Translations under genes and position numbers: made by a program
The notes under the pieces: model-generated
What the model saw: the letters and a program-made list of their open reading frames with translations, nothing else
Told to the model about the DNA's origin: nothing
Databases searched by the model: none
Part shown: one piece after another, positions 33,916-36,656 of the stretch
Numbering within the stretch: position 1 is the stretch's first letter
Layout of the letters: each line of letters starts with the position of its first letter
Assembly (NCBI GenBank): GCA_964423445.1
Contig: CAYREQ010000001.1
Coordinates: forward strand, 129,732-193,731
Source of the DNA: an uncultured Candidatus Saccharibacteria bacterium
GTDB taxonomy: Bacteria; Patescibacteriota; Minisyncoccia; Phycocordibacterales; UBA9973
Direction: 5' to 3'
Length of the DNA: 64,000 nt

Positions 33916-33923
33916 GAATTAGA

Positions 33924-33961
33924 AAAGGCCGTCGACAATGTTTGTCTCCGGCCTTTTTTTG
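33924..33961 (+). terminator. Rho-independent terminator after rmuC
   Basis: AAGGCCG...CGGCCTT stem followed by a T8 run. Confidence 0.6.
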
Positions 33962-33984: not shown

Positions 33985-34167
33985 TTAGTATGTTGAAGGA
34001 TCGTTCCACCTTGATGGATCGACCCGTAATGAAGCCACTGATTTGCTGGCTTCACCATCTTCTTTTTTTTCTTCGACTTCCTCTTCGGCAGTCGAAGGTT
34101 TAGGTTCGTGCTCGGGCACTTGTGCGACCGAGAGAAGAATTGAGTTTGATGTTTCTTTGATAGCCAT
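33985..34167 (-). CDS. hypothetical small acidic protein
   Basis: 60 aa with a strong AAGGAG Shine-Dalgarno 8 nt upstream. GC-rich codon usage like the gene upstream of it. Probably co-transcribed with 34183..34665. Confidence 0.4.
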   Translation of the reverse strand: MAIKETSNSILLSVAQVPEHEPKPSTAEEEVEEKKEDGEASKSVASLRVDPSRWNDPSTY

Positions 34168-34182
34168 TTCCGTATCTCCTTA

Positions 34183-34665
34183 TTAGTGAAAATTACTGTC
34201 GTGGTCAAAAATTACGGTGCCTTCTTTTTTACCGAAAGAAGCAAACCTTTTTTCTTTGTACTCCCGAACCTTCATTCGAGAACTTTTGCTTTTCTTTCGG
34301 TTTTTGATGATGTAAATCACCGAAACTAAAAGTAGCCCAAAGAAAATTGCGATTGAGGCTAGGACTCCAGAAGTCCCACTCAAAAGATAGCTTTTGTAAC
34401 CTCCTTCTTTTACTTGATAACCGGTCGCTAAGGCTGGCGACGGTGTCCTGATCGGCGTCGTTGCTGGCGCCGAAGTGTTTGGTATTTTTACATCCGCCGA
34501 CCTAGTCATCGTCGACGAAGGGGGTCTGTTGTCCAGAGCTAACCCTGGATACAGTTTTGTTTTTGGCGGCAAGACTGTATTTGAATTAGCGGACTTTTTA
34601 GTCTGTGAAAAAACTGGCGAGATTGCCAAAACTACAAAAACTAAAATAAGAAATATTTTCTTCAT
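34183..34665 (-). CDS. hypothetical type-I membrane protein (signal peptide, Pro/Ser/Thr-rich stalk, C-terminal TM anchor)
   Basis: MKKIFLILVFVVLAISPVFSQ signal peptide, low-complexity PST linker, transmembrane helix ...ASIAIFFGLLLVSVIYII and a basic tail. GGAG Shine-Dalgarno 8 nt upstream. Confidence 0.6.
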   Translation of the reverse strand: MKKIFLILVFVVLAISPVFSQTKKSANSNTVLPPKTKLYPGLALDNRPPSSTMTRSADVKIPNTSAPATTPIRTPSPALATGYQVKEGGYKSYLLSGTSGVLASIAIFFGLLLVSVIYIIKNRKKSKSSRMKVREYKEKRFASFGKKEGTVIFDHDSNFH

Positions 34666-34738
34666 TTCAATACTCCTAAACCTATGAAAAAATCAACGAA
34701 CTAGGCAGACATCACAAAAATGTGACACCATAGTTCTT

Positions 34739-34798
34739 TCTACCTAAAAGTATAGCATATTCTTACCTATTTGTCAAGGTAAATAAGCTTATTTTATA
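34739..34798 (-). promoter_or_regulatory. consensus sigma70 promoter, copy A of a 60-nt repeat
   Basis: On the minus strand it reads TTGACA, a 17-nt spacer, then TATACT. The -35 is at 34772-34777 and the -10 at 34749-34754 (plus-strand coordinates). It is flanked by an AT-rich UP-like segment and is 56/60 identical to 36153-36212. Confidence 0.65.
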
Positions 34799-34825
34799 AG
34801 GTTTTTTTGTATAAAAATAGAAAAT

Positions 34826-34852
34826 GGCCGGAACTCATAGAGCCCGGCCAGA
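34826..34852 (-). terminator. Rho-independent terminator of the 388-aa gene
   Basis: GGCCGG...CCGGCC stem, then a T-rich tract on the minus strand. A second GCTCGAG...CTCGAGC hairpin lies at 34880-34900. Confidence 0.55.
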
Positions 34853-34909
34853 TTGATAATTTATTGAGTTTATCTCTCATGCTCGAGTAACGCTCGAGCG
34901 TCGTTTGTT

Positions 34910-36076
34910 TTAGAATCCTTCAGATAATCTTCGGGAATCTTTTTGATACCTAGCAGCCCGATGTCCGCCAGATTGTGCGTAGTGGTCGTAATCTTCGTGA
35001 TCAGAAACCGTTTCGGTTGGTTTCGTGACCACAGAACTTACTACCTCTACTGTCGGCGGCGCGATGCTGACTGGAATCGTATCTTTAGAAGAAAATTTAT
35101 CCTCCGTTAGATTGAGGATGTGTTTTCCTCGGCATTCCTCGTCGGAAACGACCGGTTTGTCTTCGATGAAAACAAACCCTTTGTATGTGTCCCCCGAGTG
35201 AACCGGATTCATGCAGGCCTGAAGGGTCTGCAAGACTTCTTCTGTCCCATCCGGAAATCGATATCGGGCTTGATAAGCTCGAATACCGGGCTCCGGAATA
35301 CGACGAGGCTTCATGGTGGTACCCAAGTAGCCGACCAACCCTTCACCAGAGATAGTCCCGACTTGGATCGGTCCGATACGCCGGATGTCAAAGGTGAACC
35401 CTTCGAGATTAGGATTTCTTTCTCTGTAGAGAGAGCTCGCCCTCTGGTCGAAAAATTTTTCCAGTCTTCTGGTCTCGACCGGTTCGATGCCGCCAGCAAC
35501 ATAAGGCTTGCCTGATGTTATCGGATCAAGTCTGAGCTCGCGATCTTCCCAGCTCTCTTCTTCGTCTTCGTCACTAAAGTCGGGATGCCAATTTCTCGGA
35601 TGCGAGAAAGAAAGCAAAGCTCTCCAGATAAGAAAAACGAGGAATAGTGCGATGACGATGTACGGCGCCAACCAGCCGTAGTCCTTCCACAACATTGCTG
35701 TCGTGTAATTTTCCGGACCGGCTGGAAGTGTCGTAACCAATGGTGGTTTACCCTTCAACGCCGGCTCCGTGGATTCGGTGGAAGCTGTGGGTTCTGTCGT
35801 GGGTGTATTGTATGCCTTCGCATACTCACGCCCCCAGATACCGCGAGTGTCCCCGACTTCGAGTCGGTCGATCGTACCGTCCGGAAGACGGTAACTATCG
35901 CCGGCTTTCATTCGCTTGAAATCGACGTTCGGGTTTAACTTCACGACCTTCGCCATGAAGTTTCCAAAGTCTCTGTGCGACATGATTCCGAAATACAAAT
36001 TTGCCGATACCGGTGTGGTAGCTGTTAACGTTAACAGCATCACCAGTACAAAAATACTAACGAATGTTTTTTTCAT
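34910..36076 (-). CDS. hypothetical single-pass membrane protein (signal peptide, Pro/Thr-rich extracellular stalk, TM, ~230-aa cytoplasmic domain)
   Basis: 388 aa. MKKTFVSIFVLVMLLTLTATTPVSA signal peptide, TPTTEPTASTESTEP linker and a central transmembrane helix WLAPYIVIALFLVFLIW. The coding sequence is visibly GC-rich relative to the rest of the window. Confidence 0.65.
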   Translation of the reverse strand: MKKTFVSIFVLVMLLTLTATTPVSANLYFGIMSHRDFGNFMAKVVKLNPNVDFKRMKAGDSYRLPDGTIDRLEVGDTRGIWGREYAKAYNTPTTEPTASTESTEPALKGKPPLVTTLPAGPENYTTAMLWKDYGWLAPYIVIALFLVFLIWRALLSFSHPRNWHPDFSDEDEEESWEDRELRLDPITSGKPYVAGGIEPVETRRLEKFFDQRASSLYRERNPNLEGFTFDIRRIGPIQVGTISGEGLVGYLGTTMKPRRIPEPGIRAYQARYRFPDGTEEVLQTLQACMNPVHSGDTYKGFVFIEDKPVVSDEECRGKHILNLTEDKFSSKDTIPVSIAPPTVEVVSSVVTKPTETVSDHEDYDHYAQSGGHRAARYQKDSRRLSEGF

Positions 36077-36152
36077 TTCTTTCCTTTCCTATTCTTTTTT
36101 CGAAAAACTTCAGAAATTTAAATGAGCGAAAAAACACGCCTTCATTAAATCA

Positions 36153-36212
36153 TCTACCTAATAGTATAGCATATTATTACCCATTTGTCAAGGTAAATAA
36201 CCTTATTTTATA
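36153..36212 (-). promoter_or_regulatory. consensus sigma70 promoter, copy B of a 60-nt repeat
   Basis: TTGACA, 17 nt, TATACT on the minus strand. The -35 is at 36186-36191 and the -10 at 36163-36168. It drives the 388-aa gene. Confidence 0.65.
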
Positions 36213-36267
36213 TAGCTATATTCGTTTTATTGGAATTTTTTATTAAAAATGTTATATTGCCTCGATA

Positions 36268-36334
36268 GGCCCTATCGTCCCTCGGCCATAGCCAGTAGGC
36301 TCTGTCCTACGGGCGAGGCTAACGGTTAGGACAT
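36268..36334 (+). repeat. 27-nt copy of the tRNA-Glu 5' end, split by a 40-nt insert with CCTCG/CGAGG inverted termini
   Basis: Positions 36268-36279 plus 36320-36334 reproduce tRNA-Glu nt 1-27 exactly. The insert 36280-36319 is cctcggccatagccagtaggctctgtcctacgggcgaggc. Confidence 0.7.
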
Positions 36335-36337
36335 TTT

Positions 36338-36592
36338 ATGCATACAGTTTATGTATTAAAAAGTTTAGTAGATAATAATTTATACATAGGGTGTACTTCT
36401 GATTTAAAAAGTAGGCTGAAGTATCACAACGAAGGTAAAGTAAAATCTACAAAGCATCGTAGGCCTTTAGAATTATTATATAAAGAAAATTATGATAACA
36501 TCTATGAGGCTTTCAAAGTAGAAAGATATTATAAAAGTGCAAAAGGAAAACGTGATTTAAAAAATAAAATGGCCCTATCGTCTAACGGTTAG
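36338..36592 (+). CDS. GIY-YIG nuclease family protein (stand-alone, YhbQ-like)
   Basis: YVLKS...NLYIGCTSDLKSRLKYHNEG GIY-YIG motif, followed by conserved R/E/N positions. 84 aa. The last 22 nt overlap the 5' end of tRNA-Glu. Confidence 0.75.
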   Translation: MHTVYVLKSLVDNNLYIGCTSDLKSRLKYHNEGKVKSTKHRRPLELLYKENYDNIYEAFKVERYYKSAKGKRDLKNKMALSSNG

Positions 36593-36642
36593 GACATCGC
36601 CTTCTCAAGGCGGTAATCAGGGTTCGATTCCCTGTAGGGTCA
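36571..36642 (+). tRNA. tRNA-Glu (anticodon CTC)
   Basis: GGCCCTATCGTCTAACGGTTAGGACATCGCCTTCTCAAGGCGGTAATCAGGGTTCGATTCCCTGTAGGGTCA. Glu-type D-loop, anticodon loop TTCTCAA, TTCGATTCC T-loop. Confidence 0.8.
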
Positions 36643-36656
36643 CAAAGCACTAATAA

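Follow-up and report, generated by a model that had tools for sequence, protein, structure and literature searches.

We analysed a 64-kb stretch of DNA (the window) from an uncultured CPR (Patescibacteria) bacterium, in which two neighbouring genes, encoding products of 388 and 160 aa, are each preceded on the minus strand by one copy of a promoter block. The copies are referred to here as cassette B (upstream of the 388-aa gene) and cassette A (upstream of the 160-aa gene). Judged from the sequence, each copy is predicted to head its own minus-strand transcription unit, with a leader of ~77-80 nt and an intrinsic terminator of its own. Listed in the direction of the predicted transcription, the features are:

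36153..36212, minus strand: promoter cassette B, spanning about -58 to +4
within 36153..36212, minus strand: AT-rich UP-like tract of cassette B, with the imperfect palindrome AAATAAGGTTATTT
36191-36186, minus strand: -35 hexamer TTGACA of cassette B, followed by a 17-nt spacer ending in TGC
36168-36163, minus strand: -10 hexamer TATACT of cassette B, with a predicted start near 36156 (GGTAGA)
36077..36156, minus strand: predicted 5' leader of the 388-aa gene, ~80 nt, placed from promoter geometry
about 36121-36146, minus strand: hairpin with a U-rich loop in this leader, which also holds the SD-like sequence GGAAAGGAAAG
34910..36076, minus strand: 388-aa gene, GC 0.50, GC3 0.53
about 34881-34899, minus strand: second palindromic hairpin with two XhoI sites, just past the 388-aa stop, z -2.6
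34812..34850, minus strand: intrinsic terminator of the 388-aa unit, -17.4 kcal/mol, z -3.8, conserved in the sister-species contig L002
34739..34798, minus strand: promoter cassette A, with the same architecture as cassette B
34781-34794, minus strand: perfect 14-bp palindrome AAATAAGCTTATTT of cassette A
34777-34772, minus strand: -35 hexamer TTGACA of cassette A, with a 17-nt spacer ending in TGC
34754-34749, minus strand: -10 hexamer TATACT of cassette A, with a predicted start near 34742
34666..34742, minus strand: predicted 5' leader of the 160-aa gene, ~77 nt, SD AGGAG
34708-34729, minus strand: hairpin with a UUUU loop in this leader, z -1.4 (L002, z -2.2)
34183..34665, minus strand: 160-aa gene (ORF), GC3 0.42
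33985..34167, minus strand: 60-aa acidic ORF, starting 16 nt past the 160-aa stop
33917..33957, both strands: bidirectional intrinsic terminator, -28 kcal/mol, z -4.3, 93% identical in L002

The 388-aa product comprises a signal peptide, a LysM-like N-terminal domain, one TM helix (about residues 132-160) and a highly conserved domain of ~120 aa of unknown function. Searches against Pfam and NCBIfam, LysM profile included, returned no match for the window protein. In an alignment, the LysM-like motif YxVxxGDT...N is present in distant family members and degenerate in the window protein; one distant member that carries the NCBI name LysM (P0019) matched the LysM model weakly (E=7e-4, below the cut-off). 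The 160-aa product is bitopic, with a signal peptide, a Pro/Ser/Thr-rich ectodomain, one TM helix (about residues 93-123) and a basic tail, and is only 35% identical to its orthologue. The 60-aa ORF behind it is probably co-transcribed with it, and its C-terminal RWNDPSTY is kept in the sister genome. Paralogy of the two genes was rejected, since BLASTP between the products gave E=0.23 and aligned only the signal peptide. A GC-rich 160-aa gene on contig L004 was also considered as a homologue of the window's 160-aa gene and rejected. In composition the pair stands apart, as the initial annotation had said in calling them GC-rich island genes: their GC3 values (0.53 and 0.42) are the only two outliers among 56 ORFs with a median of 0.26 (sd 0.05), and their CpG observed/expected ratio is 1.2-1.3 versus 0.63. 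Expression-linked codon bias is an unlikely source of the high GC3, because NCG codons and CpG are part of the shift and because the ATP synthase alpha and beta genes lie at the genome median. A tRNA-Glu gene is located about 200-500 nt from the locus.

A repeat search and alignment across the 64-kb window recovered the repeat that had been reported at 34739-34798 and 36153-36212, with 56/60 positions identical (93%), and this pair was the sole high-identity repeat of such length. When the window was scanned with a 47-nt degenerate core allowing at most 3 mismatches, blocks A and B were the only matches, with 0 expected from 100 shuffles. The minus-strand reading of TTGACA, 17 nt and TATACT was also correct for both copies. 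The -35 hexamer is a 6/6 match in the two window copies and in both L002 copies, the -10 hexamer of both window copies matches TATAAT at 5/6 positions, and TGC lies directly 5' of the -10 in 4/4 copies, forming an extended -10. The cassettes are the two best promoter-like sites in the 30-40 kb part of the window, and across the whole 64 kb they are the only 11/12 hexamer matches in which the -35 is perfect, the spacer is 17 nt long and TG is present. In the tRNA promoters of the same genome the -10 is extended too, but the -35 is weak, which makes the cassette exceptional in its genome. Full-consensus sigma70/sigmaA promoters with an extended -10 and an UP element are of the rrn P1 type or synthetic consensus designs, and the E. 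coli UP consensus is an A/T-rich tract at -40 to -60 matching NNAAAWWTWTTTTNNNAAANNN. The cassettes resemble such promoters in TTGACA, the 17-nt spacer, TGn, a 5/6 -10 and A/T-rich DNA at -40 to -60. They differ in having TATACT rather than TATAAT and in their upstream tract, TATAAAATAAGSTTATTTA, which is A/T-rich with 20/26 columns invariant but by eye fits the E. coli UP consensus poorly in register. Matching the full consensus does not in itself make a promoter the most productive.

The block has sharp boundaries. Inside about -58 to +4, cassettes A and B are 54/61 to 56/62 identical (89-90%), whereas the flanks outside it fall to 36-47% between A and B, which is background, while orthologue identity there is 83-87%. 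The initial transcribed sequence had been described as conserved as well; this applies to about the first 4-5 nt (GGTAGA) but not beyond, where the two leaders are 45% identical, again background. Each copy does lie upstream of one of the two genes, as first noted, with the ATG 74-136 nt downstream (one block at 74-133 nt and the other at 77-136 nt).

Between these blocks and the coding sequences, both leaders contain a candidate hairpin within their first ~45 nt. The fold of the 388-aa leader was no better than that of shuffled sequences (z 0 to -0.4), and comparison of its hairpin with L002 revealed one compensatory change, G-C to C-G; the hairpin of the 160-aa leader has a compensatory change from A-U to G-C. 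Stem-loops in ompA-type 5' leaders stabilise the mRNAs of abundant envelope proteins. The leaders described here are similar in the position of the hairpins and in their compensatory changes, but differ in weak thermodynamic support, a comparison of four sequences only and the lack of an Rfam family. In an Rfam covariance search only tRNA-Glu passed, and neither leader produced a match at E<=1; a known riboswitch or leader RNA was accordingly rejected. A leader peptide was considered too, since UTR A encodes MVSHFCDVCLVR, which is kept in L002 A, and was set aside: the corresponding ATG is gone from L002 B, and the change that removes it is the compensatory partner in the hairpin, which makes a uORF less likely than a hairpin. 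At the other end of the units, the 388-aa terminator consists of a GC-rich hairpin (34825-34850) followed by AUUUUCUAUUUUU, and the terminator at 33917..33957 is common to the 160/60-aa unit on the minus strand and rmuC on the plus strand.

Both cassettes occupy orthologous positions in the syntenic sister contigs L002, L003 and L010, and both genes are present in every recovered contig (L001-L003 and L010). A GIY-YIG ORF is a separate insertion, missing from L002. Between the window and L002, cassettes A and B are 0.95 and 0.92 identical, respectively, compared with 0.74 for the 388-aa coding sequence, 0.46 for the 160-aa coding sequence, 0.82-0.90 for housekeeping genes and 0.657 for four-fold sites (n=324). 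The four-fold identity of the 388-aa gene itself, 0.59, is close to the background of 0.66. Because the cassettes lie at the same positions in a sister at 66% neutral identity, the pair is old and vertically inherited. Orthologous blocks differ at 13/132 positions (P=7e-11 versus neutral), and 54/66 block columns are invariant in all four copies. Within the spacer, 12/14 non-TGC positions are invariant in the four copies and orthologues differ at 3/28 (P=0.005 versus neutral). The whole intergenic DNA at the locus is constrained, with 14-15% orthologue differences versus 34% at neutral sites, so that selection specific to the block is not statistically separable from general constraint by orthologue comparison alone.

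The explanation that we consider likely is that A and B are paralogues, two copies of a very strong promoter of the housekeeping-sigma (sigma70/sigmaA) type, each heading an independent unit with one of two unrelated envelope genes, and that the pair originated before the species split and was then held by purifying selection. The promoter would consist of the AT-rich UP-like tract, TTGACA, the 17-nt spacer, the extended -10 TGcTATACT and the start region GGTAGA. From copy B, transcription would pass through a leader of ~80 nt and the gene for the LysM-like/TM protein to an intrinsic terminator, and from copy A through a leader of ~77 nt, the gene for the bitopic protein and the 60-aa ORF to the bidirectional terminator. 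By presenting the same RNAP-contact surface, both units could be transcribed at equally high and presumably co-varying levels. We infer promoter activity and strength from the match to consensus, and the start sites and co-regulation are likewise predictions. The pair would have arisen once, prior to the split of the window genome and the sister species, either when the promoter block was copied alone or when promoter and leader were duplicated together at an earlier time; since then, purifying selection would have allowed the block hardly any change, with fast evolution of the coding sequences downstream. The spacer and the -58 to -37 tract are conserved beyond generic sigma70 needs, and an additional factor, such as a regulator or gene conversion, may be involved.

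The initial annotation had suggested a portable promoter-plus-gene cassette. This idea, or that of a mobile element carrying a promoter (MITE, Correia- or REPIN-like) and spreading within or between genomes, could draw on the foreign composition of the genes, on the adjoining tRNA gene and on the occurrence of the core TTGACA-N4-GGTAAnAATATGCTATACT elsewhere, namely in Magasanikbacteria, one Oscillospiraceae MAG and two metagenome contigs. We searched for copies with a 29-nt degenerate core in genome, metagenome and viral contigs. All searches for further copies taken together covered 596 Gb of genomes as well as JGI metagenomes, IMG/VR, phages and plasmids. Beyond the sister pair, no further homologous copy was found in GTDB genomes, JGI metagenomes, viral contigs or plasmids, and blastn of the cassette against plasmids gave zero matches. 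There are two copies in the 64-kb window and two in the GTDB assembly of the sister genome; for the source genome the count covers the 64 kb, and the genome-wide number is taken from the sister MAG and an exact-match pattern, which misses diverged copies. In L011-L015 the 29-nt core alone is common and the flanks are unrelated, and Rfam identified tRNAs and nothing more on these contigs; since the extra core matches have no likeness outside the 29 nt, they point to convergent strong promoters. The blocks have no terminal inverted repeats (one end reads TATAAAATAAG... and the other ...TTAGGTAGA, and these do not match in inverted orientation), no target-site or flank duplication surrounds them, and the locus carries no integrase, transposase or other mobility gene. 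Two signs of a recent island, atypical composition and tRNA adjacency, are present, but the genes stand at the same place in L002, show background-level synonymous divergence and have no integrase nearby. With non-paralogous genes, likeness confined to the promoter block and both copies syntenic in the sister species, the mobile or portable reading is largely refuted and we regard it as highly improbable. Nor is the block a ubiquitous promoter consensus, the mundane alternative raised at the outset; without other homologous copies, terminal repeats or mobility genes it is neither portable nor ubiquitous.

Three further readings were considered. The block may also hold the operator of a dedicated transcription factor, in line with the shared regulator site suggested in the initial annotation, with the two units forming a small regulon, which is compatible with a reused strong promoter and which we view as a genuine possibility short of a probable one. 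Candidate operators are the 14-bp palindrome centred near -46, a TACC..GGTA inverted repeat around the -35 and the repeated GGTA (spacer and +1). The invariance of block and spacer columns fits this idea, as spacers normally vary freely; in addition, both L002 copies have an extra A before the -35, so that the spacing from tract to -35 would stay equal, and both A copies carry the palindrome without a mismatch. In the B copies, however, it is degraded (13/14 and 12/14), the inverted repeats are only 4-5 bp, no regulator gene is adjacent, the window has no further site, and intergenic DNA that flanks the block without being repeated is about equally constrained between orthologues. Alternatively, repeated gene conversion between nearby direct repeats (concerted evolution), rather than position-by-position selection, could maintain the likeness. 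The copies lie only 1414 bp apart and share a species-specific indel (ACCATTGACA in the L002 copies, ACC-TTGACA in the window copies), one site has a 'cross' pattern, and there are only 2 fixed A/B differences versus 7 lineage-specific singletons. Two sites nevertheless track orthology (A-specific C/T versus B-specific G/A), so copies A and B have not been homogenised; at 60 nt, the tract is close to the shortest that RecA-dependent exchange can use, and conversion cannot account for 92-95% identity between species at 66% neutral identity. We therefore think this mode of maintenance unlikely. Finally, the direct repeats could matter as a recombination substrate. The interval between them (~60 nt each, 93% identity) holds exactly one gene plus its terminator, and a crossover joining A to B would remove or multiply the 388-aa gene and keep the 160-aa promoter intact, so that a surface protein would be switched on or off or vary in dosage. 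The fast evolution of the envelope proteins encoded here would suit such a role, but all recovered contigs retain both genes and no deletion variant was seen among them, and recombination of this kind would be a by-product that leaves the conservation unexplained. It seems to us very unlikely that the repeats matter in this way.

The preferred reading, a strong promoter used twice, places the pair closest to putative mobile promoters (PMPs), which are defined as stretches of 50 nt or more with an identity of 80% or higher, located from -150 to -50 of the start codons of non-paralogous genes (Matus-Garcia, Nijveen & van Passel, NAR 2012; PMC3575422). The blocks described here agree with this definition in their 56/60 identity, their positions 74-133 and 77-136 nt upstream of the ATGs and the non-paralogy of their genes. 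Most PMP families are, like cassettes A and B, pairs, with about 92% identity and unknown mobility (PMC3575422). In contrast to these, the A/B pair is in a CPR genome, its two genes are adjacent, and its origin can be placed before a species split; it is under purifying selection, hence reused and not currently mobile. Correia, ERIC and REPIN elements (cited in PMC3575422) similarly are short repeated non-coding units that supply a strong promoter to unrelated genes, but the cassettes, unlike these and MITEs, lack TIRs and TSD, have two copies and sit at a fixed syntenic position.

The 388-aa product belongs to an uncharacterised protein family with 116 representative clusters at E<1e-30. In each of five lineages, homologues of the gene ranked first or close to first in GC3 among the genes around them, and near-consensus promoters were usual. 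The TTGACA-17 near-consensus promoters of distant homologues are not homologous to the cassette, and fit a family that needs high expression. In the more distant homologues L008 and L016, a hairpin sits directly at the predicted 5' terminus of the leader. No phage or mobile carriage of the gene family was found, and a literature search on CPR transcriptomes or LysM expression turned up nothing relevant. As a speculative and rather doubtful suggestion, the promoter pair could be one local solution to a family-wide need, in which an expression-maximised CPR envelope gene has, in every lineage, a near-consensus promoter and a coding sequence strongly enriched in GC and CpG compared with its host genome, and in the window lineage the promoter was transplanted to a GC-shifted neighbour gene. 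The lasting GC excess could reflect selection (for example for mRNA stability), biased gene conversion where a surface-protein locus is prone to recombination, or recurrent lateral replacement. This family-wide pattern, only sketched here, could lead somewhere new and, if true, would tie promoter strength to gene composition across lineages in an unusual way.

The locus offers a clean, datable case of promoter reuse, in which one block of ~62 nt, the size of an RNAP footprint, serves two unrelated neighbouring genes and hardly varies, with downstream coding sequences that diverge at about the neutral rate or above it. To our knowledge, CPR/Patescibacteria have no characterised promoters, and genetic tools are scarce there; for these bacteria, the block offers a useful candidate for a promoter of natural origin that is both compact and strong. 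It also flags two fast-evolving, probably abundant surface proteins of epibiotic bacteria.

A repeat search with alignment confirmed that the two 60-mers reported in the initial annotation (copy A, 34739-34798; copy B, 36153-36212) share 56/60 positions, and they form the sole long high-identity repeat in the whole AT-rich window (GC 35.3%). Both carry, on the minus strand, the proposed sigma70-type architecture of TTGACA, 17 nt and TATACT, the spacer ending in TGC, and each faces one minus-strand membrane-protein ORF (388 aa or 160 aa). When the window was searched with a 47-nt degenerate core allowing <=3 mismatches, only copies A and B were matched, where shuffles expect 0. The two copies also ranked highest in a promoter scan of 30-40 kb, and a whole-window scan found a perfect -35, 17-nt spacer and extended -10 together in these copies only. 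Since the tRNA promoters of this genome, expected to be strong, have an extended -10 but a weak -35, the cassette is exceptional locally. The locus is arranged as follows.

Features of the promoter-pair locus
36153-36212, minus strand: copy B, 77-136 nt upstream of the 388-aa ORF
34910-36076, minus strand: 388-aa ORF
34812-34850: GC-rich hairpin with U-tract between the 388-aa stop and copy A (-17.4 kcal/mol, z -3.8)
34739-34798, minus strand: copy A, 74-133 nt upstream of the 160-aa ORF
34183-34665, minus strand: 160-aa ORF
33985-34167, minus strand: 60-aa ORF, 16 nt past the 160-aa ORF
after the 60-aa ORF: bidirectional terminator, common to rmuC (-28 kcal/mol, z -4.3)

Because a terminator follows each unit, we read the locus as comprising two independent transcription units, with one copy at the head of each. 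Direct comparison ruled out paralogy of the two products. In the 388-aa product, a signal peptide and a LysM-like N-domain precede a single TM helix, which is followed (residues ~175-310) by a very conserved ~120-aa domain with the consensus …DPITSG.PYV.GGI…RVGPIE.GTI.GEGLVGYLG…RPRRI…AYQARYRFPDGTEE…LQACMNPV…GD.Y.GF.F. This region has an AF2 pLDDT of 80-92; searches of Pfam, NCBIfam and PDB gave no matching model or fold. The 160-aa product consists of a signal peptide, a Pro-Ser-Thr-rich stretch, a TM segment and a basic tail.

An identical 388-aa protein was found on a Logan contig with unchanged neighbours. The homologue most similar to it, P0002 (70% identity), is encoded on a MAG contig labelled uncultured Ca. 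Saccharibacteria, where the genes run in the same order as in the window: tRNA-Glu, 373-aa gene, 170-aa gene, 62-aa ORF, rmuC, etc. In this syntenic sister genome both promoter copies occupy orthologous positions.

Nucleotide identity between window and sister genome
cassette A: 0.95
cassette B: 0.92
whole intergenic regions: 0.85-0.89
housekeeping CDS: 0.82-0.90
388-aa CDS: 0.74
160-aa CDS: 0.46 (amino-acid identity 35% over 94 residues)

As a yardstick we used four-fold degenerate sites, which are only 65.7% identical in five syntenic housekeeping genes (n=324); the corresponding 59% in the 388-aa gene points to vertical inheritance since the split. Against this yardstick and with one sister genome, orthologues differed at 13/132 positions of the block (P=7e-11) and at 3/28 of the spacer minus TGC (P=0.005). 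The non-repeated flanks are constrained too (14-15% differences). The acidic 60/62-aa ORF (window 33985-34167, minus strand; L003:2113-2301 in the sister genome) is nearly unalignable across the two species, save for an identical C-terminal RWNDPSTY, a pattern suggestive of a genuine small protein whose C-terminal motif is conserved.

When all four copies were aligned, A and B agreed at 54/61 to 56/62 positions within columns 61-122 (about -58 to +4) and at 36-47% in the leader and upstream flank, regions with 83-87% identity between orthologues; in the sister genome the A/B similarity starts ~8 nt earlier on the upstream side (AAACCCTT). Site patterns within the block are mixed (two by orthology, one 'concerted', namely an extra A preceding the -35 in both sister copies, one crossed and seven singletons), so the copies are not fully homogenised. 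As judged from the alignment, they arose from a common source before the two species separated, and the segment they share has the size of a promoter. This fits either copying of the block alone or an earlier promoter-plus-leader duplication in which only the block stayed identical, the latter gaining modest support from co-located U-rich-loop hairpins in both leaders. The predicted leaders (~80 nt for the 388-aa gene, ~77 nt for the 160-aa gene) have SD-like sequences and no Rfam matches. Their hairpins occupy identical alignment columns: over four sequences, 80.6% of cells pair versus 33-62% on sliding, and two pairs are changed on both sides, a result that 6-20/500 shuffles equalled. Each hairpin has one compensatory change between orthologues; leader folding energies are unimpressive (z 0 to -2.2). 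A 12-codon uORF, MVSHFCDVCLVR (34708-34734, minus strand), overlaps the hairpin of the 160-aa gene leader, and the sister genome keeps MVSRFCDVCLVH; the analogous ATG of leader B is missing there. Directly past the 388-aa stop, upstream of the canonical terminator, lies a perfect palindromic hairpin with two XhoI sites (34881-34899, GCTCGAG…CTCGAGC), kept in the sister genome.

We scanned GTDB representative genomes, JGI metagenomes and IMG/VR for exact matches to the core TTGACA-N4-GGTAAnAATATGCTATACT. GTDB representatives yielded the sister contig (two matches), a pair of orthologous loci in Magasanikbacteria and a single locus in Oscillospiraceae; JGI metagenomes yielded two contigs, and IMG/VR none. 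The non-sister loci, with the 29-nt core TTGACA-N4-GGTAAAAATATGCTATACT, are L011:5705-5733, L012:5104-5132, L013:6569-6597, L014:1133-1161 and L015:6970-6998 (two Magasanikbacteria, the Oscillospiraceae MAG and two metagenome contigs). They have the core alone in common, with unrelated flanks and downstream sequence, and we read them as probable convergent near-optimal promoters; by our estimate, functional constraint on the -35 and extended -10 would produce a handful of chance matches. In the Oscillospiraceae MAG the core lies upstream of a cysS-like ORF, and in L011 and L012 a conserved ~90-nt hairpin-plus-terminator-like sequence lacking an Rfam match follows it. Across these collections and the 64 kb of the source genome searched, the 60-mer is no ubiquitous consensus. 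The proposed portable promoter-plus-gene cassette is likewise disfavoured by these core-only matches, by plasmid and phage searches that returned nothing, and by the lack of terminal repeats in the block and of a mobility gene at the locus. No viral relatives of the 388-aa family were found. A MITE-like element, a riboswitch and a recent island were also rejected. The pair does fall within the operational definition of 'putative mobile promoters', namely >=80% identity over >=50 nt within -150..-50 and non-paralogous genes downstream, for which typical pairs are ~92% identical (PMC3575422).

We propose that a single strong housekeeping-sigma promoter, present twice, would give equal, high transcription of two unrelated envelope-protein units, with leader hairpins and good SDs possibly raising mRNA stability and translation. 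The block may also contain a shared regulator site, as suggested by the conserved spacer, an indel common to both sister copies and a 14-bp palindrome, AAATAAGCTTATTT, which is perfect in the A copies and degraded in the B copies; however, no site was positively identified.

At 36230-36643 (plus strand), tRNA-Glu carries an inserted 84-aa GIY-YIG ORF (36338-36592, Pfam E=7e-15). The tRNA's 5'-most 28 nt (GGCCCTATCGTCTAACGGTTAGGACAT) are present twice, in a dead 5' fragment (36263-36330) broken by a ~39-nt GC-rich hairpin and in the intact tRNA-Glu (36571-36643), which the last ORF codons overlap. In the sister genome tRNA-Glu is uninterrupted, directly behind the same TTGGAA-17-TATATT promoter. 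Given this duplication and the uninterrupted sister tRNA, the element looks like a tRNA-targeting insertion that restores its target and uses the tRNA promoter.

The GC richness noted for both genes was upheld (GC3 0.53 for the 388-aa and 0.42 for the 160-aa gene; median 0.26, sd 0.05, 56 ORFs). Codons ending in G/C and NCG codons are generally enriched in them, and CpG o/e rises from 0.63 to 1.2-1.3 in both. At E<1e-30 the 388-aa family comprises 116 representative clusters, and at E<1e-10 it comprises 284; in every locus fetched the homologue ranked first or close to first in GC3 among its neighbours (excess +0.1 to +0.4). The six distant loci, with the window and sister genome, represent about five independent lineages.

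GC3 of distant 388-aa homologues and their neighbours
L004: 0.69; neighbours ~0.28
L005: 0.83; neighbours ~0.72
L008: 0.74; neighbours ~0.60
L016: 0.68; neighbours 0.38-0.54
L017: 0.71; neighbours 0.28-0.49, one 108-aa ORF at 0.716
L018: 0.73; neighbours 0.51-0.67

A TTGACA-17 promoter-like site lies upstream of the homologue in all loci, the only one in L005 being 686 nt upstream. Across 11 kb of L004 just two sites score 12/12, one 5' of the homologue and one 5' of another GC-rich small gene. TTGACA-17-TATACT sites at L018:5740 and L018:7300 flank the homologue: one precedes it by ~260 nt, and the other precedes RNase J, the next gene, by ~250 nt. Since ATP synthase alpha/beta have the window median GC3, ordinary expression-linked codon bias does not explain the excess; candidate causes are selection, biased gene conversion and recurrent transfer. 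In an uncultured CPR lineage, the pair represents a candidate strong promoter that is clearly delimited and maintained by selection, and the association of GC excess with strong promoters in the 388-aa family is the more intriguing lead.
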